This document shows, one piece after another, positions 17,346 through 59,478 of a stretch of 64,000 nucleotides of DNA. The translations under genes were made by a program, and so were the position numbers. Each line of letters begins with the position of its first letter. Positions within the stretch are counted from its first letter, which is position 1. Location: IMG/VR virus record IMGVR_UViG_3300009165_000006. One strand, 5' to 3'. The notes below the pieces were generated by a model, which was not told the DNA's origin, did not search any database, and was given only the letters and a program-made list of their open reading frames with translations. The DNA comes from a virus.

Positions 17346-17356
17346 GCATAGGTTCA

Positions 17357-17811
17357 TCACTTGAAAAACATGGCTGGTGTGTCCCGACGAAGAGGGTGCT
17401 TGATTTCGTCCTGCACCTTGGGATCTTCAGTGGGCTTCAGCGGGTCAAGTGGAGTAGCGGGGGCACCACAGTTCGTGCACTTGCCATCGCTCAAGTAAAG
17501 CGGACGGTGGCAGTAGTAGCACTTGGGGCGGCCCGTAAGATTACCTACCACCGGACGTCCTCCGGGAGCTTCTCGTACTGGATCTCGCAAGCCTGCTCAT
17601 AGGTCAGGGCAGGTTCAATCTGGCCTTCGAGACGAAGGCCGATAGTACACGATTTGTTGATGGCGTAGCAGGCTAGACTCTCCATGACCTTGCGAGCGTC
17701 TTTCCGGTCACCAAGGAAGAGGCCGGCCTCTTCCTTGGTGGTAACGTGCCACTTCGACCAAAAAGCTCGAAGCTCGTCTTGAGTCATGGCCTCGAGGTTT
17801 GTGAGTTCCAT
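17357..17811 (-). CDS. zinc-ribbon protein, apparently split by a frame change (17811-17545 N-terminal domain; 17590-17357 CYYCHRPLY...CTNCGAPATP ribbon)
   Basis: The two ORFs overlap by 46 nt in different frames. A paralogous module lies at 15706-16167. Promoter-like motif upstream. Confidence 0.5.
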
Positions 17812-17845
17812 ACGTTCTATTACGCACGATTGGGGTGAAACTCAA
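17812..17845 (-). promoter_or_regulatory. promoter-like element TTGAG-N14-TGCGTAATA-N6-ATG (minus strand)
   Basis: Plus strand reads cat-acgttc-tattacgca-N14-ctcaa. Confidence 0.5.
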
Positions 17846-17887
17846 CAAGCAATTGTCTGATTCCTAGGATTGGTGTAGGGTTGAAGC

Positions 17888-18202
17888 ATGGAATGTATTG
17901 ACCAGTCAACTTTGAACTCTGAACCAGATCTCGGAACTATCGCGCAGTTGAATCACGAGGGGGATACGACGTACACGTGGGACAAAACGAATGAAAACGA
18001 GTGCCGGGCCGCCGAGGCACACTTCAACCTGTTGAAGTCGAAAGGATTTCTCACCTTTAAGGTGAAACGTAGTAGACGTAAAAGTCCGGAAGAAGCATTT
18101 GATCCGAAAGCAGGCAAGTACGTCTACGTGGCCCCCGAAATAGCGACCACCCTTGACCCCAAGGCGGACTACGTAGTGACACCACAGATGCGAGGCGGGT
18201 GA
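17888..18202 (+). CDS. hypothetical protein (104 aa)
   Basis: ORF track. Confidence 0.3.
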   Translation: MECIDQSTLNSEPDLGTIAQLNHEGDTTYTWDKTNENECRAAEAHFNLLKSKGFLTFKVKRSRRKSPEEAFDPKAGKYVYVAPEIATTLDPKADYVVTPQMRGG

Positions 18203-18554
18203 TGGGTAGTAGAACTACCCAGTGGATTCCTGAATCAGAACTTAGCCTTAGCAGGAGATAACTTGTGCATCTCCTCGTAGGCGTTCTTGATCCAGGTGAG
18301 ATCCCCATTTATGAGTTAGAAGGGGCAGAGCATAGCTATCAGTGGGATGGGGCCTCCAATTTTGCCAATGGAGGAATCTGGGACATCAGGCCCTTAACAG
18401 TCAACCATAGAGTCATAATCAGCTTAGGGCTTGATGAACCACTGACCGTTCTCGTTGCCCAACTTTCAGATCGCCTTCAAGCGTTACCTCAACCACTGGA
18501 TGGTTCCTTGATTCTGTCTATCAGGTCCGTCTATTCTGTTGATGGGGTTACTAA

Positions 18555-19220
18555 TTGGGAATCAGGTCCAGATCAGCATGGGATCTGGATCGTGGGGGTT
18601 TGGCCTTTGTAGAACGAGCCTACACGGGCATAGATCTCGATGGGCAAGATCCAAGCTATTTGATTGAGCAGACGTGCTTGCTTATCGCCGGCAAGGATTA
18701 CGATAGAAACATACCTAGACTTGAAGCTTGGAGGGTTCGTCTCGAAGAAGAAAGGCGCGAGAGGAAAGCCAAGCGTGATAGTGTTGAAGCAAAAGCTCGA
18801 GCTATCCTAATGGCCCATCTCGATGAAACCCAAGTGTCTGAGTTCGAATCCTCTGGATCCTTCCACGTCCTTGGTGCCGATGGTTACACCTATCTCATCA
18901 CCTCCAGGGAACAACACAATGTGTTTCGAATCGAGGAGGGACGTCGAACCTTCGAGTACTGCATCGTGACAAGGGATTTCGTACCCCTTCAGGATCAGAT
19001 GCTGACTCAAATGCTTCTCTTGACGACCCATCCTGCGATGTTTCATCAAATCGCGAACACCTGGGAAATTAGAGAAGATGGGACCCGCATCCGCATAGCA
19101 GGGCGACTAGTTGACGTTCTTGAGAACCCAGCCGCCCAAGTCGGCTGGGTTCTCAAATCTCCTTACCGGCAAGTATCTCTCTGTACATCGGGCCTAGCAC
19201 TTTTGAGACACTCCCCTTGA
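18555..19220 (+). CDS. hypothetical protein (221 aa; start uncertain)
   Basis: ORF track; overlaps ORF 18265-18612. Confidence 0.3.
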   Translation: MGIRSRSAWDLDRGGLAFVERAYTGIDLDGQDPSYLIEQTCLLIAGKDYDRNIPRLEAWRVRLEEERRERKAKRDSVEAKARAILMAHLDETQVSEFESSGSFHVLGADGYTYLITSREQHNVFRIEEGRRTFEYCIVTRDFVPLQDQMLTQMLLLTTHPAMFHQIANTWEIREDGTRIRIAGRLVDVLENPAAQVGWVLKSPYRQVSLCTSGLALLRHSP

Positions 19221-20094
19221 TGCTCTGCTCGGTAGCCCCGAGTTCGGTCATCTCCCGTTGGCAATCCTTGGCCAGGTCTGCGCAAACCGTGGTCAAGATC
19301 AATGGCATGTCCTTCATGGTATGGGTTAATTCAACCCCTCGGTCGTTAAGGCGTCCGACGGCGTTGATGACTCGCCCCTTCGTGACGTACTTGACGATGA
19401 AGTCATCAATCGGAGAAGGACCCCTTGGAGTTTTCTCTTTGGCGGCGGATGCAACTTCAGCGAACTTGGCGCATTTATGCTTACAGATTAGCCAGTTTCC
19501 AAACACGTTTCGGAGAAGAGGATTCGATCGGATGACCACCCCCTCAGCGATGTTGTCATCCCCAAAACCATTGATCTTCCCAACCGTGCTGGGTTTTTCT
19601 AAGAGCGCATCGAAGTTTGCCTGAGTCGGCTCCCCTCGCCACACCTCGGGTATTACAGGTAGCTCCATCTTGGAGCAAAGCTCGATGAACAGGTCGTAGG
19701 TGACAAAGTTCTTGGCCACCATGATGTCGAAGGCTCTGAAAAGAGGCTCCTGACCACTTGAGTATTGAACTCCCTTGGTTTTGATGCCGGGACCGTGAGC
19801 TTCACCAAAAACGGTGACTTCAGAGAACCCGTAGGACTTGATGACCTCCATCATCCTTGTTAGAAGGTCCTTCTGGGCTTTGAACTTGTTAAGCATGCTC
19901 CCGAGCGGGAAGTTCTGCCCAAGTTGATATTCGACGTCACGTGAACCATAACCAATCTCTTCGATGCTTTTCATCCCGAGTGGGAAAAAGAGACGAAAAT
20001 TCGAACCGTGGATTTTCTCGAGGGCAACTACTTCCCTGACAGAAAAGATCTCTGGGCAGTCGGAGAGTTGAACGATTGAAGGGTACTTTTCCAT
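19153..20094 (-). CDS. Rnl2-family RNA ligase (ATP-dependent nucleotidyltransferase)
   Basis: Motif I EKIHGSN (lysine adenylylation site, cf. KIHGTN of T4 Rnl2), motif III VTVFGEAHG, motif IV AEGVVIRS, motif V WLICKHKCAKF. 313 aa. Confidence 0.75.
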   Translation of the reverse strand: MEKYPSIVQLSDCPEIFSVREVVALEKIHGSNFRLFFPLGMKSIEEIGYGSRDVEYQLGQNFPLGSMLNKFKAQKDLLTRMMEVIKSYGFSEVTVFGEAHGPGIKTKGVQYSSGQEPLFRAFDIMVAKNFVTYDLFIELCSKMELPVIPEVWRGEPTQANFDALLEKPSTVGKINGFGDDNIAEGVVIRSNPLLRNVFGNWLICKHKCAKFAEVASAAKEKTPRGPSPIDDFIVKYVTKGRVINAVGRLNDRGVELTHTMKDMPLILTTVCADLAKDCQREMTELGATEQSIKGSVSKVLGPMYREILAGKEI

Positions 20095-20193
20095 TGGATC
20101 CTGTATAAATCCACGGATAGGTACTCCAATCCCTTGGCCAAGTCAACATAATGTTGACTTTCTTGATATACCCTGACACCTTGGACTACTACT

Positions 20194-20529
20194 ATGTCAA
20201 AAGACGAATGTCCGGCTGAGGATAGACTGATAATAGGTCCAGATCTTGGGGATGGGTCGCATTCGTGCGTGAGGCATACTCCAGATCACAAGATCCACGT
20301 GGGTAGAGTCCAACCTTTGAGAGATGGGCAATCGATCATTGGGGACCAAGAGATTCTGATGGTGAAGTACGATTCCCAGCAAGGAGACTTTTTGGTACGA
20401 ACTGTATACAATCCTCGTCATCAAGGAGAAGAGTCCAACACCTCGAAGGGCCCAGCCAAGGTCACCAGCGACGCTTATCGAGCCGGCTACGACCGTATCT
20501 TCGGCAAGACTTCGATCGGAACAGCTTGA
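20194..20529 (+). CDS. hypothetical protein (111 aa)
   Basis: ORF track. Confidence 0.3.
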   Translation: MSKDECPAEDRLIIGPDLGDGSHSCVRHTPDHKIHVGRVQPLRDGQSIIGDQEILMVKYDSQQGDFLVRTVYNPRHQGEESNTSKGPAKVTSDAYRAGYDRIFGKTSIGTA

Positions 20530-20595
20530 TGAGCTGGTTCGGTGTAATCACCGATAGTGTCTCAGGAGTTCAAAAACCCCAATGGGTTTGATCGG

Positions 20596-20640
20596 TTTGA
20601 TCAACTTTGACTAGCTTTGGAGTCAACTGCTACTACCCTG
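20596..20640. repeat. copy of a ~45-nt element shared with the region upstream of tnpB (46707-46748)
   Basis: GATCAACTTTGACTAGCTTTGGAGTCAACTGCT versus GATCAACTTTGATCAGGTTTGGAGTCAACTGCT (3 mismatches in 33 nt), with similar flanks. Confidence 0.6.
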
Positions 20641-20665
20641 ATCGATACAAGCGAGAACCCATGAT

Positions 20666-20869
20666 ATGACTTTCTCCGAAGCCCTTGTTCACCTCAAAGC
20701 TGGTCGACAGATTAAGCGCAAGGGGAGTGTTGTTTGGCTGCATATCGACAAGTACGGGCACATCCGGGAATTGGACTTTGCCTTTGGATTTCCAGACTCC
20801 ACACTCTGGGTACCAACCGAAGAGGACATCTTAGCCGAGGACTGGGAAATGCGCGAAGTTACCAGCTAA
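20666..20869 (+). CDS. hypothetical protein (67 aa)
   Basis: ORF track. Confidence 0.3.
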   Translation: MTFSEALVHLKAGRQIKRKGSVVWLHIDKYGHIRELDFAFGFPDSTLWVPTEEDILAEDWEMREVTS

Positions 20870-20931
20870 ATAGCTCATTGACACATAGTACTTAAATTAA
20901 CACTACCCTCAATTTACACAAAAGGTATCGT

Positions 20932-21561
20932 ATGTTCTTCTGGTTCGGATTGGCCCCTTGGATCTGGGGGTTTGAATTTGTACTGTTTGTAGGGCTTATT
21001 GTGCTAGTCGAATTCGAGTTCTACAAGTGGTCCACCGCAACCCTCATAGGAGCTCTCGTACTGAGTCACTTCCTGCATGCGTTCTCAGTAGTGGATCTAG
21101 TAAGGCATAACCCTGGAACCTCCTTTATCGTAGTCCTGAGCTATTTCCCTGCGGGCACCATATGGGCAACCTTCAAGTGGTTCTTGTTCCTCTATCGGTT
21201 CAAGGACGCCAGGATGGATGCCTTGGATGAGTTCCATGATATTCAGGAAGCGGCTCGAGCTCGAATCGCTTCGGGTGCTGTCTACACAATGGATGAGGAG
21301 TTGGTCAATAAGACGGATTACCAGTATTTGCGTAGCCAATACTTCAAGAAGACCAACCTTTCGAAGATCCCACGTGTCCGTGACTACAAGAGGAAGGTTA
21401 TCGGTTGGATTGCGTTCTGCGTGTTTTCGATAGTTGGCACTATCTTCCACGACCTGGTTCGTAGGATCGCACTCTGGATCTACAATCGAGTCAGCAGTTT
21501 CCTTCAGTGGATGTCAAATCGGATTATCTCCGAGGTGGAAGAAATACCTGAAAAGACCTAG
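20932..21561 (+). CDS. integral membrane protein (209 aa)
   Basis: Several hydrophobic helices (FFWFGLAPWIWGFEFVLFVGLIVLV; IGWIAFCVFSIVGTIF). Confidence 0.45.
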   Translation: MFFWFGLAPWIWGFEFVLFVGLIVLVEFEFYKWSTATLIGALVLSHFLHAFSVVDLVRHNPGTSFIVVLSYFPAGTIWATFKWFLFLYRFKDARMDALDEFHDIQEAARARIASGAVYTMDEELVNKTDYQYLRSQYFKKTNLSKIPRVRDYKRKVIGWIAFCVFSIVGTIFHDLVRRIALWIYNRVSSFLQWMSNRIISEVEEIPEKT

Positions 21562-22451
21562 TGAACCAAGGTTCGCTCGAAGGCCTCGTTGTTGAGCACA
21601 ATCATGATGGAGGGTGGATCCGGAGCGTTCGCTTGACGAGTTGACTCATCGTACTCGTGGCAACCCCACTCACCCTTCTCCATGTAAGGTTGAACTCTTA
21701 CCCATGTTCCGATACTTGGATCAATGGCTGCAGCAGCCGCTATTGTGTCGTGAAGGGCCTTCCCCTCTGGGCGCTTTTTGAAGTAAAAAGCCATCCCTTC
21801 CTTGATGAGGTCAAGCCCAGCATGGGCTCCGGAAGGGATTCTCTCATTGACCATAGGACCCCAGAAGACACCGTGACAAACGTTCTTGGAAACCATCCGT
21901 CGAGTCCAGATAGGTGAGTTTTTACCCAGTAAACCGAGGGCTGCTTTCGAGTCGCCCCCAAGGTTGAAGGTCGGACAGGTGAGCTTGCCGGCGAACTTGG
22001 GTAGCCGGTGTTCGGGTGGGACGATGTTGTCTCCGGCGAAGCCACCCTGGCAAGTCCACGTACGGAAAAACGGCCACACCTCACTGCTAGCCTTCCAGAT
22101 GTTGGTGAGGGCCGCTCCAGTGATTAGGTGGGTGGTTGGAAAGTCCAGTAGTACCTGCTTAATGACCTCAGTGGCGCTTCCCTGGGGCTGACAGGGGGAG
22201 ATCTTCCCAAGCCAATCATAGTGGAACTGGGACACCTTAGAAGTTTGCTTCTTGAGGCTCCCAATTCCGATAGGCACGTCCGTCCGCCCAAGACGATCGA
22301 GGACATGACGAACTATCCCGACCTGGTCGAAACCTCCTGGATGGATCGTAGCCCCAACGAGTTTGGCTCGGGGATGAGTAGCAAGGAGCGCTAGAGTGAA
22401 CACGTCATCTGGGTCACTCGTTTCCATGTCGAACAGATATTCTTGAGTCAC
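21558..22451 (-). CDS. nucleoside hydrolase-like protein (IU-NH/RihA fold candidate)
   Basis: N-terminal DMETSDPDDVFTLALL resembles the DxDxxxDD aspartate cluster of nucleoside hydrolases. GTG start. Divergent from the ADP-ribosylglycohydrolase gene. Confidence 0.4.
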   Translation of the reverse strand: MTQEYLFDMETSDPDDVFTLALLATHPRAKLVGATIHPGGFDQVGIVRHVLDRLGRTDVPIGIGSLKKQTSKVSQFHYDWLGKISPCQPQGSATEVIKQVLLDFPTTHLITGAALTNIWKASSEVWPFFRTWTCQGGFAGDNIVPPEHRLPKFAGKLTCPTFNLGGDSKAALGLLGKNSPIWTRRMVSKNVCHGVFWGPMVNERIPSGAHAGLDLIKEGMAFYFKKRPEGKALHDTIAAAAAIDPSIGTWVRVQPYMEKGEWGCHEYDESTRQANAPDPPSIMIVLNNEAFERTLVH

Positions 22452-22514
22452 TTGAAATCAATCTCAGGTTATAGGAGTGGCTGCCACCTAAATTTCGATG
22501 GTGTATCAGCTACC

Positions 22515-23456
22515 ATGCCCTCTTCGTTGAGTAAAGCCCAAGCTTGTCTGCTGTGTCATGTGGTCGGAGACTCCCTTGGGAGCCTCGTAGAGTTCGAGTC
22601 CGAGGAGACCATCCTTCAGGAGCACCAAGGAGAAAAAGTGCGCTACCTCGCTGATGGGGGCACCTGGGAGACCTTGGCGGGGCAAGGCACAGACGATTCC
22701 GAAATGGCCATCACCCTAGCTAGGACTCTCATTCACCATGGTTTTTACAGCTCAACCATTATGCGGAGTATGTATTGCTATTGGCTCAATAGCCAACCAT
22801 TTGACGTTGGCAGGACCACTCAAAATGGACTCCTGGATATGCCTGACTTCCACAGCCAAGCCAATGGGGCTTTGATGCGTGTCGCCCCCTTGGGGATCTT
22901 TGGAGCGAAGAAGAAGGACTGGAGAAAGACCATGATCTGGGCGATGGAGGATGCCCTTATTACGCACCCAAATCAAATATGCTTACAAATCAATGCACTT
23001 TATGTATCGATGATCGATCAAGCAATCGGAAGTGATGCAAGCCCAGATCAACTCTACGGTGCGCTGGCCGCAACAGCAGTGGATATGGAAGCCCATCCAG
23101 TTATCCTCGAAGCTATCGACCGAGCTAGAACTGCCCCACCGGAAAACTACATGGTGAATATGGGTTGGGTTGTCCTCGCTTTCCAGAATGCGCTCTATCA
23201 ACTACTACACGCCCCGTCATTGACTGAAGGAATTGTCGATACCGTCAATCGCGGAGGTGATACCGATACCAACGGAGCAATTGCCGGTGCTCTGCTTGGG
23301 GCTGTTTACGGGATGGAGCAAGTCCCCAAGGATTGGATCGATGGAGTAACCCAATGTTGCCCATCGGTGACCAACCCCTACTCTAGAAAGCCACGTACAG
23401 GCTTCTTTTGGACTAATGATGTGCTAGAAGTAGCCAAAAAACTACTTGATAGTTGA
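22515..23456 (+). CDS. ADP-ribosylglycohydrolase (DraG/ARH family)
   Basis: GDSLG, GQGTDDSEM, GALMRVAPLG and GGDTDTNGAIAGALLGA motifs. In-frame ATG within track ORF 22443-23456. Confidence 0.8.
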   Translation: MPSSLSKAQACLLCHVVGDSLGSLVEFESEETILQEHQGEKVRYLADGGTWETLAGQGTDDSEMAITLARTLIHHGFYSSTIMRSMYCYWLNSQPFDVGRTTQNGLLDMPDFHSQANGALMRVAPLGIFGAKKKDWRKTMIWAMEDALITHPNQICLQINALYVSMIDQAIGSDASPDQLYGALAATAVDMEAHPVILEAIDRARTAPPENYMVNMGWVVLAFQNALYQLLHAPSLTEGIVDTVNRGGDTDTNGAIAGALLGAVYGMEQVPKDWIDGVTQCCPSVTNPYSRKPRTGFFWTNDVLEVAKKLLDS

Positions 23457-45398: not shown

Positions 45399-46643
45399 TC
45401 ATAGGAGAACTCCGATGTTCACTTCCTGCTTCAACGAGACATGACTCGTAGGCCGAAGGGTTCTCCTTCGTTCCGCCGCTAGAGGACTCTCCACAGGCTT
45501 TTTAGCGCCGAAGGCGCCTAGGTTCCTCGGGAACTCCGAGTACCTTTCCAAATTCTTCGCCGCATTCTCATCTCGATCATGAATAGCTCCACATCCTTCA
45601 CAAACCCACTCTCTCACAGAAAGAGCCAGCTGCGGCCGTTTAAGGCCGCAGCTGGTACATATCTTCGAGGATGGGAACCATCGATCAGCTACTTCTAGCT
45701 TAGATCCATACCAAGTGGTCTTGTAGGAAAGTAGCCTCTTACTTTCAAACCACCCTTGGTCCAAGATCGACCGAGAAAGGTGAGGATTCTTACTCATTCC
45801 ACGAATACCAAGGTCTTCCACAACGATGGCTGACTTGGTTTTCGCCAGCCCCGTTGTGAACTTATGAAGGAAATCCCTTCGAACGTTTGCTACTCGTGAG
45901 TGAATCCTCGCTAATCTTTGAGCTGATTTCCTCCTATTTGACGAACCCTTACGCTTCCTCGAATGAGAGCGTTGAGCCCTTCTTAACCGACTTAACGCTT
46001 GTTTCAATGGATTCGGGGCATGTATCTTCGTACAGGCCCCGTCCGAAGAGACCGTAGCGAAAGTAAGAATCCCTAGATCTACCCCAGCTTTTGGTCCTTG
46101 GATAGGAATAGGATCCGTCACGACCTCAACGGTATTGACGGATACGAACCATCGATCTGCTACCCTCGAAATCGTAGCTGAAAGGATCTCCCCACTAATC
46201 CTGCCGTTGATCTTCTCTTTGGTTCGAATAGTCCCAAGCCTAGGGAGCTTAATATACCTAGTTTGTGGCTCAATTGAACCATAGAGACGGAAGGAATCCT
46301 TTGATTTATGCTTCTTTTTGAACTTTGGGAAGCCAACTCCTTCTGATCTTCTGGACCAGAAAGCTTTGAAAGCTTTGTCAAGATCACGAAGAGCTTCCTG
46401 AGGGGCACACTTGGAAACCTCGTACATCCAAGGGAAGTCAGGGCCCTTGCGGGCGTTGAGGTCCCGATGTTCAGCGATGGCGTTGGTGAACTTCTCCTTA
46501 CCTTCTTGGGTTCGGAAGCGTTCGATCCTCCTTTGGAGGGACCAATTCCAAGCGAAGCGAGCCGTTCCGGCATGCTTCGCCAAGAACGTCCGAACCCGAT
46601 TGTTCGGATCTAACTCGAACTTATACGCCTTCCGAAGTTCCAT
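45399..46643 (-). CDS. tnpB: TnpB (IS605 OrfB-family RNA-guided RuvC nuclease)
   Basis: N-terminal MELRKAYKFELDPNNRVRTFLAKHAGTARFAWN (OrfB HTH), RuvC-I KAGVDLGI, RuvC-II AIVVEDLGIRGM, zinc finger CTSCG...CEGCG, RuvC-III IHDRDENAAKNL. 414 aa. Confidence 0.9.
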   Translation of the reverse strand: MELRKAYKFELDPNNRVRTFLAKHAGTARFAWNWSLQRRIERFRTQEGKEKFTNAIAEHRDLNARKGPDFPWMYEVSKCAPQEALRDLDKAFKAFWSRRSEGVGFPKFKKKHKSKDSFRLYGSIEPQTRYIKLPRLGTIRTKEKINGRISGEILSATISRVADRWFVSVNTVEVVTDPIPIQGPKAGVDLGILTFATVSSDGACTKIHAPNPLKQALSRLRRAQRSHSRKRKGSSNRRKSAQRLARIHSRVANVRRDFLHKFTTGLAKTKSAIVVEDLGIRGMSKNPHLSRSILDQGWFESKRLLSYKTTWYGSKLEVADRWFPSSKICTSCGLKRPQLALSVREWVCEGCGAIHDRDENAAKNLERYSEFPRNLGAFGAKKPVESPLAAERRRTLRPTSHVSLKQEVNIGVLL

Positions 46644-47903: not shown

Positions 47904-48968
47904 TCAACAACCCAAAGTGTCGACGATTCGGCTAATCTTCTGGACCTTGGACCGGAGCTGATCTTCGGCAGCCATTCGGGCCACGGATCGATCCTCATCG
48001 TTACCCTCGCACCACAGTTCAAGACCGTGCACGAAGATTTCGGTGTGCCACTTCCCACCTGTTTGCTTCTCGGAAAGAACAACATCCTCGTTCTGGTAGT
48101 GGCAATGAGTTGGGTTTACCGAGTGCATGGGTTGGTTCATCCATGTCGAGAACTCTGACTGTACTTTGGCTTTGCTCTTAGCGAGATCAGCATCGTCCTC
48201 ATCATCGTCATCGGACTCGTCACCCTCCTCGTCATCATCGTTCTCAGACTCATCATTCTTCCCCTCATCCTCATCAGACTCGTCGCTCATAGCTTGAAGA
48301 GCTTCTCCAAGATCTAGGGTATCATTTGAGGGGTCATCTCCGAGGATTGGGCTAATCTTCGCTTTGGTTGCTAGAGAGTACCTGCCCCTCACGGGGCAGA
48401 TGAACCGATTCTTGTGTGCCGAAAGTATATTACTTACTGAACTCCTTCGCTTGGGCATCCAACATCTCTTCTCCAGCCTAGTGCAAATCTCGCCGACGCT
48501 GAGAGTCTCAGTTCCAATGACATAGATTACCCTATCGAGTAACTTTTGAGGTTTTTCATCTTCCGACATCACAACTTCCTCCTCCACCGATACTGACACC
48601 TCTACCACAGGTGCCCGAGTATCGGAACTACTTACTGAGGTGGCGGGGCTCGTCGGGGTTAGCCCTGTCCCATTAAGCAGTTTCTTATGTTCAATCACGG
48701 CTATAGCGGTTGCCCTCCTTTCTTTCTCTTGCAACCGCCTCGCTTCAACGATTGCCAGCCTGCGGTCCGTGAACAAGCAGCTCTCGCTGGCCACGAATTC
48801 GTAATGGTCTTCAACTGAACGTACGGTCACAGGATCAGGAGGGGCATTCGTCGGCGAATGCCCTTCAGTACCAGCTTTTATGATGAAAACTGGTATGATC
48901 TGCCCCGTTCCCGCTATCCAGCGCATAGGGTGGGTAGTCATGCCCCGTGTTATTACGCATAGATGCAA
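47904..48968 (-). CDS. highly acidic protein (long D/E run); probable true ATG start near 48942, downstream of the promoter-like motif
   Basis: ESDEDEGKNDESENDDDEEGDESDDDDEDDADLAKSK segment. The track start is a TTG; an in-frame ATG follows TGCGTAATA-N9. Confidence 0.45.
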   Translation of the reverse strand: MHLCVITRGMTTHPMRWIAGTGQIIPVFIIKAGTEGHSPTNAPPDPVTVRSVEDHYEFVASESCLFTDRRLAIVEARRLQEKERRATAIAVIEHKKLLNGTGLTPTSPATSVSSSDTRAPVVEVSVSVEEEVVMSEDEKPQKLLDRVIYVIGTETLSVGEICTRLEKRCWMPKRRSSVSNILSAHKNRFICPVRGRYSLATKAKISPILGDDPSNDTLDLGEALQAMSDESDEDEGKNDESENDDDEEGDESDDDDEDDADLAKSKAKVQSEFSTWMNQPMHSVNPTHCHYQNEDVVLSEKQTGGKWHTEIFVHGLELWCEGNDEDRSVARMAAEDQLRSKVQKISRIVDTLGC

Positions 48969-49805: not shown

Positions 49806-50108
49806 ATGGATACAACGCAAATCCTAAAAGTATCGGAGAGATACAGATCAATATTTCAGCTTGCAGGAGCTACTCCTCGAAAGTGGGATACCTCTCTGAA
49901 CACTTGTCCAGGAAACCTCTGCGCTTATGATCACTGCTTTTGGATGTGCGAGGAGATTCGGAAGATGATACCAGCGAATCCGGAAAAGGCTGTTCGTTGG
50001 TTGTGCTTCGTTCAGGGCATCCTCTGGGTTTCTGGAAAATCTAGTATCGATTCTATGCGGGAGGATAATCGACTCATCCTCGGTAGTCAAGCCGACTGCC
50101 GAGGATGA
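49806..50108 (+). CDS. hypothetical protein (100 aa)
   Basis: ORF track. Confidence 0.3.
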   Translation: MDTTQILKVSERYRSIFQLAGATPRKWDTSLNTCPGNLCAYDHCFWMCEEIRKMIPANPEKAVRWLCFVQGILWVSGKSSIDSMREDNRLILGSQADCRG

Positions 50109-50291
50109 GGGGGCGCATGACCCCGAAGTGGCTCAGCGTCGCTCATCACTTCGACTCCGACACAGTCCGTTCAAGGCGGTTAGCAGCCTCTGAGAGGTCT
50201 CCGTTAATGAGTTGGGCACCCGCCACGCTTCTTCACTACACCAAACTCAAACACGATTCTGGTGTAGTGTACTGCGACGAATGAGGTGTGA

Positions 50292-51218
50292 GTGCTAGCA
50301 ACAAGAAAATGCGCATTCGACTCATGCGAGATAGAGTTCGAACCAACACATCCATACCAACAATACTGCTGTACTAGGTGCAAGGAGCGCGCTCGTTGGC
50401 ATCGTTCAGAACAGATTGAAAAATCCAAGAAACGCAGCCAAAAGTGGTACTCCGATCCGGAAAATAAGCTCAACCACAGGGTAGCTCGAAGGGGTAGACG
50501 CATGTCAGTAAAAACTGGTAGAGGTGAATGGGAGATGCCAGCCCCAATGATCGAATACCTACCGGGCGGATGCGTCCCGATTGCTATTGAGTGTGGGTAT
50601 AAGTTCGAACATTGGCAACTTGCATCACTTCACGGAATGATGAGTACGATCACTGGACCTCACTCAGCCAACAACCCAGTATTTACACTGTTTCCGTGGC
50701 ACATAGGGTGCGGATGGGCCGCGTACATTCGAGATATTGAGTTAGCCAGATCGATTGCCATGCGTACACACGTGGTCAACTTCAATGACCGTGAGCAGGA
50801 ACTCGCTCTAGGATGGCTCGTACGTGTCAAAGCACCACAGATCAAGCCAGGTGCTTGGAAACTTCGAATCACAACTATTACACCTGTGTGTTGTCGCGCA
50901 ACTGGAGGGACTTATTACATGGCTCCAACTGCGAACAACATCAAAGGGACTCTTGAGGTAAACGTTGCACGAAGGCTTGGAATAAAGACTGAGAAACACG
51001 ACGTTCAGGTCAGATTGCTTGACTCAAAAGCCTTCTTAGACAAGCTTCGACTATCTGGCAATGGCAGCAAGCTTGGTGACATTTGTGGGTGGTCTGGAAG
51101 CATCGACATTGAAGTGAATGCGCTTGGTAGGCTTCTGCTTGAATGTGCCGCCCTCGGCATGGGATTGGGAGGCAAGTTGGCGTTTGGATTTGGGCGAATC
51201 AAGGTAGAGACAATATGA
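50292..51218 (+). CDS. RAMP-like protein with C-terminal glycine-rich loop (Cas6-like candidate); N-terminal Cys cluster
   Basis: Extreme C-terminus ALGMGLGGKLAFGFGRIKVETI fits the RAMP G-rich loop GhGxxxxxGhG. N-terminal CAFDSC...CCTRC. GTG start; its TGA stop overlaps the next ATG (ATGA). Confidence 0.4.
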   Translation: MLATRKCAFDSCEIEFEPTHPYQQYCCTRCKERARWHRSEQIEKSKKRSQKWYSDPENKLNHRVARRGRRMSVKTGRGEWEMPAPMIEYLPGGCVPIAIECGYKFEHWQLASLHGMMSTITGPHSANNPVFTLFPWHIGCGWAAYIRDIELARSIAMRTHVVNFNDREQELALGWLVRVKAPQIKPGAWKLRITTITPVCCRATGGTYYMAPTANNIKGTLEVNVARRLGIKTEKHDVQVRLLDSKAFLDKLRLSGNGSKLGDICGWSGSIDIEVNALGRLLLECAALGMGLGGKLAFGFGRIKVETI

Positions 51219-52387
51219 GGCCCTCGCCAAGTCAGCTGCTTCACAAAGCAATAGGAAGCCCGCGGGTTGACGGGTGCTCGGAGGCAAACGGTCTTTGCTA
51301 CGTTTGCGCAGGTCCTGTAGTTCGAGGAAAACCCGTTGTCGACTGGTGTACTTCAAGTTACACAGATCAGAATCGTGCGCGTTGTCCTGCAGCAATTTAC
51401 GTCTGTGAGGCATGTTGCATGCTTGCTGCACGTACTTTTCCAGTCCCTGGGCGCCCGCCAGGACAGTGTTCGGTTTGCGAGGGAACCGGAACTGTGAAAA
51501 AGATTCCTCCCAAGGGCAAAGGAAAGGCGTCCAAGATCGGAGACGCTTGCCCTAAGTGTGGTGGTACGGGCGAAGCGTCGTTCGGTGGCAACTTCCGCAA
51601 TTACAGCCACCTATATGAGGAGGGGTGGGATTCACCGTCACTTCCGGATGGAACCGTGATCCCAGGCTACCTGAACGCATCAAAGGGAGAAAAACCGATC
51701 GTGCTTAACTTCCTAAGGCGTGACCACCACGGCATGTGGTTCGCTGCAATCGCAGACAGTGGACAGAAGCATGTGGTGCATCATACACCACCGAACCTGC
51801 TCGGTCCAGGCGGAACGGTGCTGTTCGAGGAGACGCTTGTTAGCATCCCACCAGGTCTCTCGCTGGTAGACGAAATGACAGCACTTCTCACCGCTGGAGC
51901 AACAAAGGAAGAGATTCTCATCGGAGAATATAGCCAGTTCACATGGCTGCGCTTGGAGACAGCAATCCGTGAATTTGAGGGTCGTAACGCGAAGCGGCGG
52001 CATACTGGGTGGTTTCGTTTGGCGCTATGGCTATCTCAACGAGATGAGGCAGCAGTAGCTATAAGGATTGAAGCCGAGAAGGCAGCAGAGAAAGAACGTA
52101 AGGCACGGACCAAACAGAGAACCAAGGAGACTCAAAGTGTTGAAACAGGAAGAAAGAAAGCATCTCGAAACACTTCTTGTCGAGATGCTGTTATCGATCC
52201 GAGACCGGTATGTGAAGGACAAAGGGGGGAAGGTAAAGCCGGACTACCTCGAACAGATCCAAAACCGAGCCAGAACAAGTGCAGAAATGTCACCGACCAT
52301 CAATCGGTGGGTGAACGAGCTTCAAATAGACCTACAAATGCAGAGCATCGACACGTGGGGCAGCTCAGCCTCTTCAACGCTCCTTGA
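51215..52387 (+). CDS. cysteine-rich protein with CxxCxGxG zinc-finger repeats (possible large-subunit analogue); 3' end uncertain
   Basis: CYVCAGPV, CSVCEGTG and CPKCGGTG repeats. C-terminal ~100 codons are low complexity and overlap the next gene in another frame. Confidence 0.4.
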   Translation: MRPSPSQLLHKAIGSPRVDGCSEANGLCYVCAGPVVRGKPVVDWCTSSYTDQNRARCPAAIYVCEACCMLAARTFPVPGRPPGQCSVCEGTGTVKKIPPKGKGKASKIGDACPKCGGTGEASFGGNFRNYSHLYEEGWDSPSLPDGTVIPGYLNASKGEKPIVLNFLRRDHHGMWFAAIADSGQKHVVHHTPPNLLGPGGTVLFEETLVSIPPGLSLVDEMTALLTAGATKEEILIGEYSQFTWLRLETAIREFEGRNAKRRHTGWFRLALWLSQRDEAAVAIRIEAEKAAEKERKARTKQRTKETQSVETGRKKASRNTSCRDAVIDPRPVCEGQRGEGKAGLPRTDPKPSQNKCRNVTDHQSVGERASNRPTNAEHRHVGQLSLFNAP

Positions 52388-52607
52388 TCTAGTAAGCTTC
52401 TGCGACGAACACTCGTGCCACAGAGAAGCGAAAATGATGGTAATTCGCGATGGTGCGTTCTTGTTTGCATTGCTCCGCAAACAGATCGAACTTCGCAAAG
52501 AAGAACGGGAGCGAGAGAAGCAGGAGCGAATCCTTGGGAAACTTACCAAGGAAGACATGTTGGCAGCAGCAGAAGAGAATGGATTGTTAGTTGAGGAAAC
52601 GGCATAA
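52137..52607 (+). CDS. small alpha-helical protein (~156 aa; Cas11-like small-subunit candidate) starting at GTG inside the 3' part of the upstream gene
   Basis: AAGGAG SD 7 nt upstream of GTG 52137. Sequence is helical and charged. Its TAA stop overlaps the next ATG (TAATG). Confidence 0.4.
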   Translation: MLKQEERKHLETLLVEMLLSIRDRYVKDKGGKVKPDYLEQIQNRARTSAEMSPTINRWVNELQIDLQMQSIDTWGSSASSTLLDLVSFCDEHSCHREAKMMVIRDGAFLFALLRKQIELRKEEREREKQERILGKLTKEDMLAAAEENGLLVEETA

Positions 52608-53590
52608 TGGAGACAACTCGATACATTTCGGTGGTCAGGGCAGTTCAACCGATCGCGCATCACAAGGGTAGTATCGGAAATCACGCAACGATCATGCGTG
52701 CAGCTGTAAGGCTTCCTGGCGGAGAGATCGCAGACGTGCCAGAGGGCACTGGTAACGCAGTTAGAAATCGATTACGCCGAGCTGCCGCGATCTGTTCATT
52801 GGACGCAGCTGGAATTCTGGGGGATCCCCAACTCGAACGTGGAGCGATGCGGCTGCTGTTCAACGGCGGAATGCTCACTGGAAAGGGTGATGGGACCACG
52901 ATCAACATCGATCGATGGCGCGAGCTTGTGACGCTATTCCCGTTTCTTGGGATCCTTGGGGGTTGCATCGACAATCGTACCCAAGGCGGACAACTCAATG
53001 TTGACGCACTGAAGCTCATCTGCGAGGAAAACATGCACTCGCTAAATCCATGGACGCGACAGTGGCTCAAGGATAACAATGAAGGGATCTGCGAAAGCTC
53101 CTACCTACTTGAGAAAGTTCAACGGGTGAATATGGACCCGGAGATCCTTCCCGAGAACCTGAAACTGCTTTCGGAGGGTGCGAGGTTACAAGTCTATAAC
53201 AAGCTACTAGCACAGGGTAAAGCTCACGAGGAGGGGAACGCGATCGAGGCCGCAAAAGTCAAGAGCGACATGATGCCGCATACGTTCGAGCGAATCATTC
53301 GCGGGTCATTGTTTCAACTGTCGTTCTTGTTGAGGTCTTATAACGAGCTTGAGCGAGACGCTTTCGAGTACGCCTACTCCTGCCTATTGAACAACTTCCG
53401 TTTCGGAGGAAAACAAGCATCAGAACACGGGGAACTCGAATTCCTTGCGGGTGCCAGGGTTCACTTCAAACAATACACAGGAGAGCTCGACATCGGTGAG
53501 CGAAAAGGAACCGGTGATCTGTTCCGAGCGCACGTTACCGATCACAAGGAACAGCTGGTGAACTGGTTACGGCACGAGGTAGCAGCGTGA
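52607..53590 (+). CDS. Cas7-like backbone protein candidate (327 aa)
   Basis: Operon position between the small-subunit-like and Cas5-like genes. Gly-rich segments LLFNGGMLTGKGDGTT and FRFGGKQASEHGE. N-terminal VP.GTGNAVRNRLRR resembles the RAMP S.KG..R motif. Weak. Confidence 0.3.
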   Translation: METTRYISVVRAVQPIAHHKGSIGNHATIMRAAVRLPGGEIADVPEGTGNAVRNRLRRAAAICSLDAAGILGDPQLERGAMRLLFNGGMLTGKGDGTTINIDRWRELVTLFPFLGILGGCIDNRTQGGQLNVDALKLICEENMHSLNPWTRQWLKDNNEGICESSYLLEKVQRVNMDPEILPENLKLLSEGARLQVYNKLLAQGKAHEEGNAIEAAKVKSDMMPHTFERIIRGSLFQLSFLLRSYNELERDAFEYAYSCLLNNFRFGGKQASEHGELEFLAGARVHFKQYTGELDIGERKGTGDLFRAHVTDHKEQLVNWLRHEVAA

Positions 53591-54240
53591 ACTACGAGCC
53601 AATCAAGGTCAGCTGCAAGCTTGCCGAGGGGTTCGTAATGCGAACCCCTACCGTGTTGGATTCACTATTGGCCGCAGTGATAGCAATGCGTGAGCAGTTG
53701 CCTACTCCGATATCCGAGGACGAAATCAAAGAGATCCCAGTACCCATTGACGAAGCTGCTGGGATTCGACTGTGCTCATCGGCCATGTTTGAGATAGAGG
53801 AGACATTCGGCTCATTTCGAACACGACGCCCACCAATCGAAGAATACTGCCACTTTGGAAAGCGTGGTGGTTCCGTATCGATTGCTAGTGGCCCCGACAA
53901 GCTCTATATGATGGAGTATGACTACCAGTTCGCAGTTGACGACAAAGTGACATGGTTTGCATTGGGAGACATTGTCAGTGTACACAACTTACTGACGGAT
54001 GTATTCTACCTCGGCAAACATCGCTCAATCGGCAAAGGGCGGATCATTGAAGGCTCATGGAAGGTTGAAAGCTGTAAACCCTGGGGTGAAGGGTTTCCGG
54101 TGGTTCATAACGGCACTCCGAAGCGTCCCTTGCCGTTAGGTTGGCCTGGCGTGGCCACGACAACCAGGACCGGTTACGCAACGTTACGACCCCCCTATTG
54201 GATGTACTCTCGTGAGGAAGCCTGCTTCCTCCCAGGATAG
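53587..54240 (+). CDS. RAMP-like protein with glycine-rich loop (Cas5-like candidate, 217 aa)
   Basis: FYLGKHRSIGKGRI loop. GTG start overlapping the upstream stop (GTGA). GAGGT SD. Confidence 0.35.
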   Translation: MNYEPIKVSCKLAEGFVMRTPTVLDSLLAAVIAMREQLPTPISEDEIKEIPVPIDEAAGIRLCSSAMFEIEETFGSFRTRRPPIEEYCHFGKRGGSVSIASGPDKLYMMEYDYQFAVDDKVTWFALGDIVSVHNLLTDVFYLGKHRSIGKGRIIEGSWKVESCKPWGEGFPVVHNGTPKRPLPLGWPGVATTTRTGYATLRPPYWMYSREEACFLPG

Positions 54241-55701
54241 ATGAAAGCTCTAGCTTGCACGCTCGACACATGGGATGCCTTCGCAAGGGCCACCGGAAGA
54301 ACTGAGACCACCGGTCTCACGTTTCCCCTACGAATACTCGAGATTATCGGAAAGCCCTACGGACTAGAGCTCGAATACGCGAACAAACTGAACCGCCATG
54401 ACGCAGTGTTCATAGCGGTTCACGACTTTAGTTCGATGCTGTCCCTTGGAAAGGCGATGCAGAAGCTGAAATTGCCGCTACTTGCCAAAGACCGCGACCG
54501 AAGTCACCCGCTCGTATGGATGGGCGGACAAGGTACACGCAATCCGCTACCTATTGCCGATATTGCTGACTTGATAGTGCTTGGGGATGCAGAGCTCTCG
54601 CTGCCTCAATTACTCCAAATATGGGAGCGAAATGGGAACAGTAGAGAGTTCCTGGTGGGAGCGTCTACTGTCTCTGGGGTATTCGTTCCTTCGATCCACA
54701 ACGAAAATGAGGTGACCCTGAAAATGGGTTGGTCACCGGATATACGAACTTCACTTCAAAGCAGAAGCCTACCAATGGAACAGCATGCCAGAATCGAGCT
54801 CTCGCGTGGATGCAAGAGCAAGTGCTCATTCTGCGGACTCGGATGGATGGGTCCAGTTCGACATAACACCTTGGACGACGTACGGGATGCTATCCGAGGA
54901 GTGCCTTCGGTCCACCTGCAGGCTTGCGATGCCGAAGCTTACCCGGACATCGTTCGGTTGCGTGAGTGGATGCGCGAGAGAGGAATCAAAGACACCGGGT
55001 GTACCTCACGTCTCGATTCTAATTACGATGCTAGGAGCGAATTTCTATTCGACAAGTTGTTCAATTTCGGAATCGAGGCTGTGACCGAGCGTGTCCGCCG
55101 CAAAATCGGCAAGGCCAGACTAACGAACGACTTCATCGTTGAGGCTATGTGCGGGCTATACGAGAGACAGAAAACGCGGAAGGGTGAAGCCTGTGAGAAG
55201 ACCAATTGGCACATGATCTCTGGACTTCCGGGGGAGTTGGTATCTGAAACCGCGGAACTGGCGCAGACAATCCGAAGGCTCGATGCGACAATGCTGGAAC
55301 GGAGAATCACCGGGCAGCTAACGATCCGATGGCAACCGTTACTACCCTGTCCTGGGACACCACTGCAGTGGTGTCCCATTGGGCCGGATTGCGAGCCGTG
55401 GAGTAAGGCCTTGGCCAGAAACATCCGCAAAACGTACTGTCTGAAGCTAGAACATGGTTCCGGGAGACAGGAACGAAAGCACGCCCTGACCTGTATACTG
55501 ATGCGGTCAGGGCGTGTGGGGGCAAAGCTGATCGCACTTGAGTCAAAGTCTGCGGTTACCCCAGTTGCCGCGGTCGAGCTTACCGGGACGACTACCGGTA
55601 AGCTCGACCTTAGTGGTCCGCTTCCATGGGATTTCGTGCATGGTTACTACCCGCGAGGGGTGCTCGAAAAGGCCTACAAAAAGACCATACAATGCACGTA
55701 G
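54241..55701 (+). CDS. B12-binding-domain radical SAM enzyme
   Basis: IELSRGCKSKCSFCG contains the CxxxCxxC cluster in the RGC..C.FC context typical of cobalamin-dependent rSAM enzymes. N-terminal B12-binding-like region (IAVHDFSS...LVWMGGQGT). ATG immediately after the upstream TAG. Confidence 0.65.
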   Translation: MKALACTLDTWDAFARATGRTETTGLTFPLRILEIIGKPYGLELEYANKLNRHDAVFIAVHDFSSMLSLGKAMQKLKLPLLAKDRDRSHPLVWMGGQGTRNPLPIADIADLIVLGDAELSLPQLLQIWERNGNSREFLVGASTVSGVFVPSIHNENEVTLKMGWSPDIRTSLQSRSLPMEQHARIELSRGCKSKCSFCGLGWMGPVRHNTLDDVRDAIRGVPSVHLQACDAEAYPDIVRLREWMRERGIKDTGCTSRLDSNYDARSEFLFDKLFNFGIEAVTERVRRKIGKARLTNDFIVEAMCGLYERQKTRKGEACEKTNWHMISGLPGELVSETAELAQTIRRLDATMLERRITGQLTIRWQPLLPCPGTPLQWCPIGPDCEPWSKALARNIRKTYCLKLEHGSGRQERKHALTCILMRSGRVGAKLIALESKSAVTPVAAVELTGTTTGKLDLSGPLPWDFVHGYYPRGVLEKAYKKTIQCT

Positions 55702-55715
55702 ACTGGAACGAGGAA

Positions 55716-55958
55716 TCAGTTAGATCGTTTTGGCGGAAGAAGCTCGTGAAAAACGAATCCATCCGTAGACTCTGTAAGAAACAGACGCATCCCCGGCTTC
55801 AATTCCGGGTACTTCGCCACATCCTCAGCGGTAATAGTGAACTTGAAAATCGTATCATCCACTTCGTCTGCCATACCCTTTTGGGCGCGTTCCCAAAAGT
55901 CAAGAACAAACTTGGGCTCTCCTTGAAACTTGTCAGTCAATCGATCTCCATTCAGCAT
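55716..55958 (-). CDS. hypothetical protein (80 aa)
   Basis: ORF track; promoter-like motif upstream. Confidence 0.35.
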   Translation of the reverse strand: MLNGDRLTDKFQGEPKFVLDFWERAQKGMADEVDDTIFKFTITAEDVAKYPELKPGMRLFLTESTDGFVFHELLPPKRSN

Positions 55959-55992
55959 ACCCTCTATTACGCATGAAGAACCAATAACTAAA
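55959..55992 (-). promoter_or_regulatory. promoter-like element TGCGTAATA-N6-ATG (minus strand; weak -35)
   Basis: Plus strand reads cat-accctc-tattacgca. Confidence 0.4.
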
Positions 55993-56025
55993 CCAAGAAT
56001 CCGAATTTTGGTGTATTAGCACCCC

Positions 56026-58122: not shown

Positions 58123-59478
58123 ATGAAAGTCCCTGAAAGAGTCCGTTTTATCTGCAGTATCTTGAATCAAGCAGGCTTTGAAGCCTGGGTTGTTGGTGGC
58201 GCAGTGCGCGACTCTATACTTGGCCGAGAAGCTCACGACTTCGATGTGGCCACTAATGCTCTCCCTGATAGAGTCGTCAGGCTGTTCAGTCGTGTCATTG
58301 AGACCGGTATCCAACATGGAACGGTCACGGTCATGATTGAAAACGAGGGCTTCGAGGTCACCACCTTCCGTGGTGAAGGTACCTACTCGGATGGGCGCCA
58401 CCCAGATAGTGTCAGGTTCTTGGACTCTATCATCGAGGACTTGGCTCGTCGAGACTTCACAATGAATGCGGTCGCGTACGACCCCTTGACAGGGAAGTTC
58501 TGTGACCCCTTCGGTGGGGTGCAGGATATCGAATGCATGCTCATCCGAGCTGTAGGATCTCCTGAAGAAAGATTCCAAGAAGACGGCTTGAGAGTCATGC
58601 GAGCTATTCGTTTCATGAGTACTCTGGGATTCTCCATTGAACCACGTACTCTCGAAGGTATGGCGAAGATTGATTCCCTAGCCTCCCTAGCCAAGGTCAG
58701 CGTTGAACGGGTCAGGGACGAGCTCTTTAGGATCATGGGCTCGAAAGCACCCTCTCGTTCAATGAATGCCATAGTTCATACCGGAGTCTTGGACGTGATC
58801 CTACTAGAGATGCGCCCGATGGTTGGGTGTACTCAAAATCGGTACCATTCCTACGACGTTTGGACCCACACGATGGTTACTCTCGACCATTGTCCGGATG
58901 ACAACCCTATCCTCAGGTTTGGGGCTCTCTTTCACGATATCGCAAAGCCCGAGGTGAAAGGGGTTCACCCAGTCCATGGGGATGCCACTTTCTACGATCA
59001 TGAGCTGGTGGGGGCAAAGAAGACCGATGAGATCTTGACTCGGTTGAGGTTCTCAACCGAAGATCGGGAGAAGATTGTTCACTTGGTTGAGCACCACTTC
59101 ATCCGGTACGAACACGAGTGGTCGAATTCAGCGCTTCGTCGTTGGGTTCGGAAGGTTGGATTGGAGAGCGTCCCCACTTTCTGCACTCTCGCCCGGGCGG
59201 ACATCGCCGGGAAAGGGCCTATAGCCACAGTTGAATCCGAGAATTCAGTCATTGATGACCTGGAGAATCGGGTATCCAGACTGCAATTGACCGAAGTGAT
59301 CCCAACGTCAATCAAGGTGCTTGCCATCGACGGGAACGACGTGATGGCTCACTTGGGTATAGGACCAGGCCCTAGGATAGGAAGAGTGCTAGAAAGCCTT
59401 CTAGACGCCGTAACGGAGGACCCAGAACTCAACACCCGGGAGAAGCTCTTGGAGCTTGCCAGGGAAGTTCAAGTGTGA
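58123..59478 (+). CDS. cca: CCA-adding tRNA nucleotidyltransferase (class II) with HD domain
   Basis: WVVGGAVRDSILGREAHDFDVAT (GGxVRD...DxD), RDFTMNA, and HD domain HSYDVWTHT...LFHDIAKP. 451 aa. Confidence 0.85.
   Translation: MKVPERVRFICSILNQAGFEAWVVGGAVRDSILGREAHDFDVATNALPDRVVRLFSRVIETGIQHGTVTVMIENEGFEVTTFRGEGTYSDGRHPDSVRFLDSIIEDLARRDFTMNAVAYDPLTGKFCDPFGGVQDIECMLIRAVGSPEERFQEDGLRVMRAIRFMSTLGFSIEPRTLEGMAKIDSLASLAKVSVERVRDELFRIMGSKAPSRSMNAIVHTGVLDVILLEMRPMVGCTQNRYHSYDVWTHTMVTLDHCPDDNPILRFGALFHDIAKPEVKGVHPVHGDATFYDHELVGAKKTDEILTRLRFSTEDREKIVHLVEHHFIRYEHEWSNSALRRWVRKVGLESVPTFCTLARADIAGKGPIATVESENSVIDDLENRVSRLQLTEVIPTSIKVLAIDGNDVMAHLGIGPGPRIGRVLESLLDAVTEDPELNTREKLLELAREVQV

Follow-up and report, generated by a model that had tools for sequence, protein, structure and literature searches.

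Introduction

Subtype IV-B CRISPR-Cas systems, such as that of Mycobacterium sp. JS623 (7JHY; PMC7937560), are canonically carried by actinobacterial plasmids. Their genes stand in the order csf1-cas11-csf2-csf3-accessory enzyme, and neither a nuclease, nor a helicase, nor an adjacent CRISPR array is present. In the Mycobacterium complex, Cas7 and Cas11 form a filament on RNA (7JHY; PMC7937560). A CysH-like gene is a nearly invariant partner of IV-B, and Cas6 occurs in only 12 IV-B loci (PMC7038947). The CysH-like gene has been seen as the probable key to the function of the subtype, for which DNA modification or epigenetic silencing has been raised (PMC7038947, PMC8175902, PMC7937560). This function still “remains to be characterized” (PMC11656645).

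The locus described here lies in a 64,000-nucleotide stretch of viral DNA (the window; Table 1). It has in common with IV-B the gene order, the lack of a nuclease, a helicase and an adjacent CRISPR array, and carriage on a mobile element. In contrast, a radical SAM enzyme (rSAM) is encoded where IV-B has the CysH-like gene, there is a Cas6-like gene, the 3' end of csf1 is overlapped by cas11, and the carriers are phages, including a huge phage that encodes CasPhi. The searchable literature, which covers subscription journals only in part, contains no mention of a radical SAM partner of type IV CRISPR; this includes the 2023 survey of rare systems and the 2025 classification. Type IV-B CRISPR-Cas with a radical SAM accessory enzyme is a rare, phage-borne and apparently undescribed variant.

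Table 1. Positions of the features discussed in the text.
Feature	Position	Strand	Remarks
CasPhi-type CRISPR array	1605-1936		five repeats, 37-nt repeat; 48 kb from csf operon
Cas6-like protein, 308 aa	50292-51218	+	N-terminal Cys-rich, K/R-rich zinc-ribbon-like region; C-terminal Cas6 RAMP domain
Csf1 (type IV large subunit, Cas8-like)	51143-52387	+	PADLOC typeIV_Cas8 Csf1_0_IV 2e-13
Predicted Cas11-like small subunit, ~156 aa	52137-52607	+	ORF open from 52068; transitive homology
Csf2 (type IV Cas7 backbone subunit), 327 aa	52607-53590	+	PADLOC typeIV_Cas7 9e-33, 3.5e-31
Csf3 (type IV Cas5), 217 aa	53587-54240	+	PADLOC typeIV_Cas5 Csf3_0_IV 1.3e-29
Radical SAM enzyme (rSAM), 486 aa	54241-55701	+	last gene of csf operon
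rSAM N-terminal Rossmann-like, B12-binding-domain-like domain	54367-54690	+	residues 43-150; conserved VWxGGQGxxNPxP, VxGDAExxLP
rSAM CX3CX2C [4Fe-4S]/SAM cluster motif	54811-54834	+	C191, C195, C198

A huge phage encoding CasPhi

The window starts inside a CasPhi/Cas12j gene, as ORF 1-1572 has no upstream stop and matches CasPhi-2 (2.2e-91) over residues 293-756. The gene is followed by a CRISPR array whose repeat, GGATCCAATCCTTTTTGATTGCCCAATTCGTTGGGAC, has no exact match in IMG/VR. Three of its spacers (the fourth precedes the diverged last repeat) match neither the window nor any of the 44 loci compared. CasPhi has been described in huge phages (PMC7162821). Four relatives of rSAM are present in IMG/VR, and others have endolysin-type and phage-type neighbours. 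Thus, the sequence-only reading was correct in placing the enzyme on a mobile element, which is a CasPhi-encoding huge phage with relatives in IMG/VR. An rSAM that is 98% identical is encoded on a metagenomic contig of 120 kb (Ga0654620_0000002). Among deposited phage genomes, none shows DNA similarity to positions 50000-56000, and at the protein level there are just three weak partial matches (24-29% identity).

The csf operon

The genes upstream of rSAM had been described from sequence as RAMP-like. The RAMP assignment stands, and the genes can be named more exactly: they encode Cas6-like, Csf1, putative Cas11, Csf2/Cas7 and Csf3/Cas5 proteins, and form a type IV-B-like CRISPR-Cas effector operon. 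The Cas6-like protein ends in a glycine-rich loop, GGKLAFGFGRIKVE, that is typical of Cas6. Its residues ~186-305 match seven Cas6 models of PADLOC, among them Cas6b (2.9e-5), the NCBIfam model cas_cas6 scores 0.0095, and a sequence search of the PDB gave no match. Homologues are the first gene of the operon in loci L001, L003, L008 and L020.

Csf1 is conserved in 15 loci and also matches NCBIfam cas8u_csf1 (5.6e-5), under the cut-off. The start that JGI assigns to a near-identical csf1 homologue corresponds to position 51215. Csf1 is conserved up to about residue 330-350; beyond this the ORF has an unconserved 3' tail, which cas11 overlaps by ~250 nt in the +1 frame. The whole of the protein encoded by this overlapping ORF is conserved in distant loci, and gene callers elsewhere give homologues of 155-156 aa. 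It has no direct match to a Cas11 profile, and is homologous to a 121-aa protein in the cas11 slot of locus L042 (phmmer 1.5e-8, HMM 8e-36). That protein in turn matches PADLOC typeIV_Cas11 (1.8e-7), as does the homologue in locus L044 (7.6e-4). An AlphaFold2 model of the window protein is all-helical and of low confidence (pLDDT 58.8). The assignment of the protein as the Cas11 small subunit is by transitive homology to the L042 and L044 slot proteins.

For Csf2, the best sequence match in the PDB is the type IV-B Csf2 of 7JHY (5.3e-6), and the Pfam family Csf3 is on record for homologues of Csf3. The type IV core of csf1, csf2 and csf3 is thus present, with NCBIfam scores below the equivalog cut-offs that mark its proteins as divergent members. 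The csf3 start and the csf2 stop share 4 nt, the TAG of csf3 abuts the ATG of rSAM, and a convergent ORF on the minus strand lies after the rSAM stop. rSAM is the co-transcribed, translationally coupled last gene of the cas6-like/csf1/cas11/csf2/csf3 operon.

Within the operon, Pfam and PADLOC revealed no helicase, nuclease or HD subunit. No source of guide RNA was detected between positions 40000 and 64000 by TRF, repeat finders, a mini-array scan or Rfam. A cysH-like gene was not found in the operon, where the gene after csf3 is rSAM. By comparison of its sequences, the module is classified as type IV-B-like, from which it departs in the presence of a Cas6-like gene and in the missing cysH-like gene.

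The radical SAM enzyme

ORF 54241-55701 is real and intact, and its assignment as a radical SAM enzyme is confirmed. The sequence R-G-C191-K-S-K-C195-S-F-C198-G is a canonical CX3CX2C motif, residues 185-342 match Pfam Radical_SAM (PF04055, E 1.4e-8, 35.6 bits against a cut-off of 29.5 bits), and residues 43-150 match Radical_SAM_N2 (PF19864, E 3.2e-18, over the gathering cut-off). Twenty-six members of the family, 35-77% identical to the window protein, were aligned; the three cysteines occur in every one of them, and no other cysteine is invariant. Radical_SAM_N2 is likewise present in every member. Other invariant or near-invariant motifs are HLQA[G/C]DAE (residues 225-232), G277-x-E279, WH..GLPGE (323-332), WQPxxPxPGTPxQW (364-377) and PWDF (462-465).

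An AlphaFold2 model built on the family alignment reached a pLDDT of 90.3 and a pTM of 0.90, and its partial TIM barrel can be overlaid on numerous radical SAM structures. In the model, HLQA[G/C]DAE comes after beta2 and WHMISGLPGE after beta5, with G277-x-E279 on beta4. The sequence-only reading had named a lack of SAM-binding motifs as a point that would speak against it; equivalents of the GGE, ribose and GxIxGxxE motifs, assigned by their position in the model, are in place. On the combined evidence of the cluster motif and of SAM-binding motifs located in the predicted structure, the window protein belongs to the radical SAM superfamily. The family's proteins have a basic pI (8.4-9.05) and share 17 conserved K/R columns. 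Pfam recognised no domain, TRAM for instance, that would bind RNA or DNA.

Structural neighbours and the question of cobalamin

The enzyme had also been described as cobalamin-type. An N-terminal fold resembling a B12-binding domain is indeed present, but use of cobalamin is not established, since the Pfam B12-binding family (PF02310) matches none of the 26 members. In structure comparison, the fit of the N-terminal domain to B12 domains is hardly better than its fit to CheY-like receiver domains. The best Foldseek match of the rSAM model is AprD4, which has the same architecture and which, to our knowledge, is cobalamin-independent despite this B12-type architecture. The class B radical SAM methyltransferases MgmA, CysS, TsrM, TokK and OxsB have just 14-18% identity to the window rSAM, which differs from them in having no Pfam B12-binding match.

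The closest solved structures include the protein-modifying enzymes MgmA and RimO, the small-molecule enzymes CysS, TsrM, AprD4 and TokK, and the RNA-modifying enzyme MiaB. Neighbours with protein or small-molecule substrates reach scores as good as that of MiaB. Since these structures span protein, small-molecule and RNA enzymes, the fold gives no pointer to nucleic acid. Identity with the MiaB/RimO methylthiotransferases was excluded, as rSAM has neither TRAM nor the N-terminal cysteine triad for an auxiliary [4Fe-4S] cluster. UPF0004 and TRAM gave no Pfam match, and across the 26 members no cysteine beyond those of CX3CX2C is conserved. Among the viral structures in BFVD there is no close analogue of rSAM (TM-score <=0.50, identity <=16%).

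Origin of the family and conservation of the rSAM-csf pairing

Against TIGR03960, a hypothetical equivalog of NCBIfam, rSAM scores 67.6 bits, compared with a curated cut-off of 462.3, and the best stretch covers residues 45-154. The rSAM family profile aligns to TIGR03960-like proteins across residues ~50-488, and the three-part architecture is the same in both. At E < 1e-30 the profile matches 438 library proteins, and the TIGR03960 type accounts for most among the matches listed. Judged from these alignments, the phage rSAMs form a divergent offshoot of the TIGR03960/Radical_SAM_N2 family, whose members are uncharacterised. They are rare: about 50 clusters among 5.8 billion (~49 relatives at E < 1e-80), each of which comes from a metagenome or a metagenome-assembled genome. 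A sharp gap sets the phage clade off, with E < 1e-80 inside and the next matches at 1e-25 or worse.

The two nearest cellular relatives looked up lie directly downstream of ftsZ in division/cell-wall clusters, so that the parent family TIGR03960 looks to be a housekeeping one. Literature searches, incomplete for subscription journals, found no relevant paper on TIGR03960 or DUF2344. TIGR03960 relatives are often fused or adjacent to DUF2344 (TIGR03936), whereas DUF2344 is never present on the phage rSAMs, and the window rSAM lies among csf genes, not among housekeeping genes linked to ftsZ. DUF2344 was also considered as a RAMP or Cas6-like partner, which would explain the pairing with Csf. 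This idea was dropped, as five fusion proteins gave no PADLOC match.

A total of 39 rSAM loci were gathered and scanned with the window proteins and then with HMMs. In 23 of the 24 informative distinct loci, csf genes are found beside rSAM, in a family that has diverged to ~35% identity. The coupling to neighbouring RAMP genes suggested earlier is thus both real and conserved. The common order is csf1-cas11-csf2-csf3-(small protein)-rSAM, and in two loci the arrangement is convergent. It could be argued that rSAM is an independent auxiliary or housekeeping-type copy of a cellular TIGR03960 function, placed beside csf by chance or for shared expression. The ftsZ-linked position of the nearest non-phage relatives and the long homology to TIGR03960-like proteins are in line with this, but the persistent csf adjacency, convergent arrangements included, together with the sharp separation of the phage clade, the score far under the TIGR03960 cut-off and the constant absence of DUF2344, make it very improbable. 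Because of the synteny in particular, we regard this explanation as close to refuted.

The sole exception to csf adjacency is locus L006 (with its duplicates L007 and L033), in which rSAM is accompanied by a conserved ~90-aa protein. It is surrounded by genes for C5, MT-A70 and N6/N4 DNA methylases, HNH and ScoMcrA_N. A 227-aa CxxCxGxG zinc-finger protein encoded upstream of rSAM in this locus was considered as a remnant of Csf1. The relationship is unsupported, since only short Cys-Gly motifs are common to the two.

The divergence of rSAM correlates with that of Csf2 (Mantel r 0.45, reached by 2 of 2000 permutations), but this is far looser than the correlation between Csf2 and Csf3 (r 0.94). 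The difference indicates that the accessory gene has to some degree been shuffled among operons. Taken with the one csf-less lineage, the loose tracking of Csf2 suggests that rSAM can work outside the complex. These observations would also fit an enzyme whose product is a diffusible small molecule or a modified nucleotide, such as a viperin-type chain terminator, a signal or a toxic metabolite. The Csf complex might then be a sensor or regulator, or merely share its regulation with rSAM. Loose co-divergence is what a swappable effector module would give, rSAM does occur without csf genes in L006, and the structural neighbours CysS, TsrM, TokK, AprD4 and OxsB act on small molecules. We consider a product of this kind unlikely.

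An exchangeable slot after csf3

Relatives of Csf2 with 36-52% identity, some of them in similar phage backbones, are accompanied by a CysH-like gene, whose product has the PAPS-reductase fold, or by a DNA methyltransferase and PAPS reductases. For example, locus P0121 reads cas11-csf2-csf3-PAPS_reduct. In locus L044, csf1-cas11-csf2-csf3 is followed by a gene for a 243-aa BrxP/QueC-like PP-loop (CysH-like) protein and rSAM is absent; its Csf2 is 52% identical to that of the window and the phage backbone is similar (DUF3799, CCA-adding enzyme). Locus L042 reads csf1-cas11-csf2-csf3-small protein-N6_N4 methyltransferase-GNAT-two PAPS reductases, with DpdA and a DNA methylase as neighbours of the operon. 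CysH-like or methyltransferase genes are thus found in or just after the post-csf3 position of related operons, which indicates an exchangeable slot of which rSAM is one occupant. We conclude that rSAM is very probably the accessory enzyme of a IV-B-like variant in which it occupies the CysH slot. The term “cargo gene”, used of it in the sequence-only reading, understates this role.

The same comparison bears on the possibility that rSAM is a maturase, which would modify a Csf subunit or a phage or host protein by side-chain C-methylation or methylthiolation and so tune or activate the complex. Neither the CysH-like PP-loop enzymes nor the DNA methyltransferase with which rSAM alternates is a protein maturase. 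Furthermore, rSAM is kept in the csf-less locus L006, and the auxiliary-cluster cysteines that RimO requires are missing. A maturase function is therefore improbable.

A possible function in nucleic-acid modification

The alternation of rSAM with CysH-like and DNA-methyltransferase genes makes modification of a target or guide the most plausible reading. The likeliest function of rSAM would be to modify, by radical chemistry, nucleic acid that the Csf ribonucleoprotein holds or targets. Two further observations hint in the same direction: the DNA-modification context of the csf-less rSAM, and the basic character of the protein. As a whole, the reading of rSAM as a IV-B-like accessory enzyme in the CysH slot that modifies the nucleic acid bound or targeted by this ribonucleoprotein has, in our estimate, about an even chance of being right.

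Such a system might work as follows. The Csf proteins would assemble on RNA into a Cas7/Cas11 filament like that of the Mycobacterium IV-B complex, and rSAM would be recruited to it, probably through Csf3 or Csf1. Its 5'-deoxyadenosyl radical would then covalently modify the bound RNA, or a base-paired target that may be RNA or DNA. Should cobalamin be bound, C-methylation would be the most plausible chemistry. The phage might benefit from the silencing, marking or neutralisation of host or competitor nucleic acids, for example the guide RNAs of host defence. With neither a nuclease nor a helicase in the system, these outcomes are favoured over cleavage.

A broader proposal, which we put forward tentatively and hold to be possible though doubtful, is that phage IV-B-like Csf complexes are RNA-scaffolded or RNA-guided modifying machines with an interchangeable catalytic module (rSAM, CysH-like PP-loop enzyme or methyltransferase). 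Where rSAM is that module, a carbon-centred modification would be installed on specific RNA or DNA, the Csf filament delivering the enzyme to, for example, host-defence guide RNAs or the genome of a competitor.

Implications for subtype IV-B

The function of IV-B has been open since the subtype was defined. A CysH slot whose occupant can be swapped narrows the hypotheses towards covalent modification, and rSAM provides a second enzyme, beside the CysH-like partner, with which IV-B function can be tested. Radical SAM chemistry joins the enzymes that have been recruited by CRISPR-Cas modules. A single huge phage carries two very different CRISPR-derived systems: CasPhi with its array, and a type IV-B-like module with rSAM. 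If the proposed modification of nucleic acid is true, the latter would be the first CRISPR-type effector that acts by radical chemistry and not by cleavage, helicase action or signalling.

CasPhi, a CRISPR array and a possible mini-array

The CasPhi (Cas12j) reading frame is already open at the first position of the window, with no stop upstream, and matches residues 293-756 of CasPhi-2 (7lys; 2.2e-91). The sole CRISPR array of the window lies 3' of this gene, and consists of five copies of a 37-nt repeat, GGATCCAATCCTTTTTGATTGCCCAATTCGTTGGGAC, separated by spacers of 35-40 nt. Three of the array spacers found no match in the window or the 44 loci compared with it, and a search of IMG/VR with the repeat gave no exact match. 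In principle, the array could also supply the type IV module, which contains a Cas6-like gene and is located at a distance of 48 kb. In L001, a Cas6-containing relative, there is a possible mini-array ~8.5 kb downstream of the radical SAM (rSAM) gene, comprising two 35-nt repeats spaced 72 nt. These repeats are unrelated to that of the window array, and the pair could be a chance match.

Overlapping and small genes of the csf operons

The 3' tail of the csf1 ORF is not conserved and is overlapped for ~250-320 nt by the cas11 ORF, in the +1 frame. This arrangement is also found in related loci (L001, L008, L009, L014, L015, L019, L022, L023 and L044), and is seen again down to loci of ~40% identity. 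It could result from internal initiation of cas11, or from a frameshift generating a Csf1-Cas11 fusion. Several gene callers overlooked cas11 or shortened it to 57 aa.

Many of the related loci encode a conserved small protein of ~90 aa with the motif F.T.HA..RY.ER...WRGPKPRRLR..V...LVTV, for which searches of Pfam and PADLOC returned no match. In addition to the loci listed in the table, it is present in L014, L015, L016, L018, L019, L022, L024, L027 and L031; it is absent from the window. Its gene lies between csf3 and the rSAM gene in the clade of 37-41% identity, and opens the operon in L044, which lacks the rSAM. In L016, L019 and L022, the ORF also encodes a zinc-ribbon, K/R-rich region with a match to the N-terminal part of the window's Cas6-like protein; thus, judging from this similarity, the small protein may substitute for Cas6.

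The type IV-B-like operon of L042/L043 (contig SRR29078207_2776) is also devoid of an rSAM gene. Here, csf3 is followed by genes for the ~90-aa protein, an N6/N4 methyltransferase, a GNAT acetyltransferase, a 289-aa protein of unknown function, and two members of the PAPS reductase family. Upstream, the operon is flanked by genes for a C5 DNA methylase and for DpdA, whose family is associated with 7-deazaguanine modification of DNA.

Features of the window and related loci
Feature	Sequence	Coordinates	Strand	Match
CasPhi ORF	window	1-1572	+	
CRISPR array	window	1605-1936	+	
ThiF-family E1-like protein	window	16599-17345		2.2e-72
RNA ligase	window	19153-20094	-	
Nucleoside hydrolase	window	21558-22451	-	
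ADP-ribosylglycohydrolase	window	22443-23456		
850-aa protein	window	30749-33301	+	major-vault-protein shoulder domain (weak), 3.1e-9
TnpB/IS605 OrfB-type protein, 414 aa	window	45399-46643	-	PHROG transposase, 9.5e-107
354-aa protein	window	47904-48968	-	
csf1/cas11 overlap	window	52068-52387		
CCA-adding enzyme with HD domain	window	58123-59478		
~90-aa protein	L004	2619-2885		
~90-aa protein	L006	9653-9961		
~90-aa protein	L042	8616-8900		
~90-aa protein	L044	6266-6763		
Possible mini-array	L001	19923-20029		
rSAM relative	L040	3307-4845		
rSAM relative	L041	6001-7641		

Other genes in the window

The TnpB-type gene precedes the type IV operon by ~3.6 kb, and a near-identical gene in the related locus L003 is annotated as both OrfB_IS605 and Cas12f1-like_TNB. 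RNA- and nucleotide-related accessory genes occupy 16599-23456 and 58123-59478. Loci L003 and L044 also encode a CCA-adding enzyme, close to their csf operons. A long stretch of the 354-aa protein is repetitive and rich in Asp and Glu; TRF gives a period of 33 at 48197-48281.

Cellular relatives of the radical SAM enzyme

The closest relatives of the phage rSAM among cellular proteins, in L040 and L041, belong to the Radical_SAM_N2 family and lack DUF2344. Each gene immediately follows ftsZ, and the one in L041 is part of a complete mur/ddl/ftsQ/ftsA/ftsZ cluster. This position suggests that the enzymes have an unrecognised housekeeping function connected with cell division.
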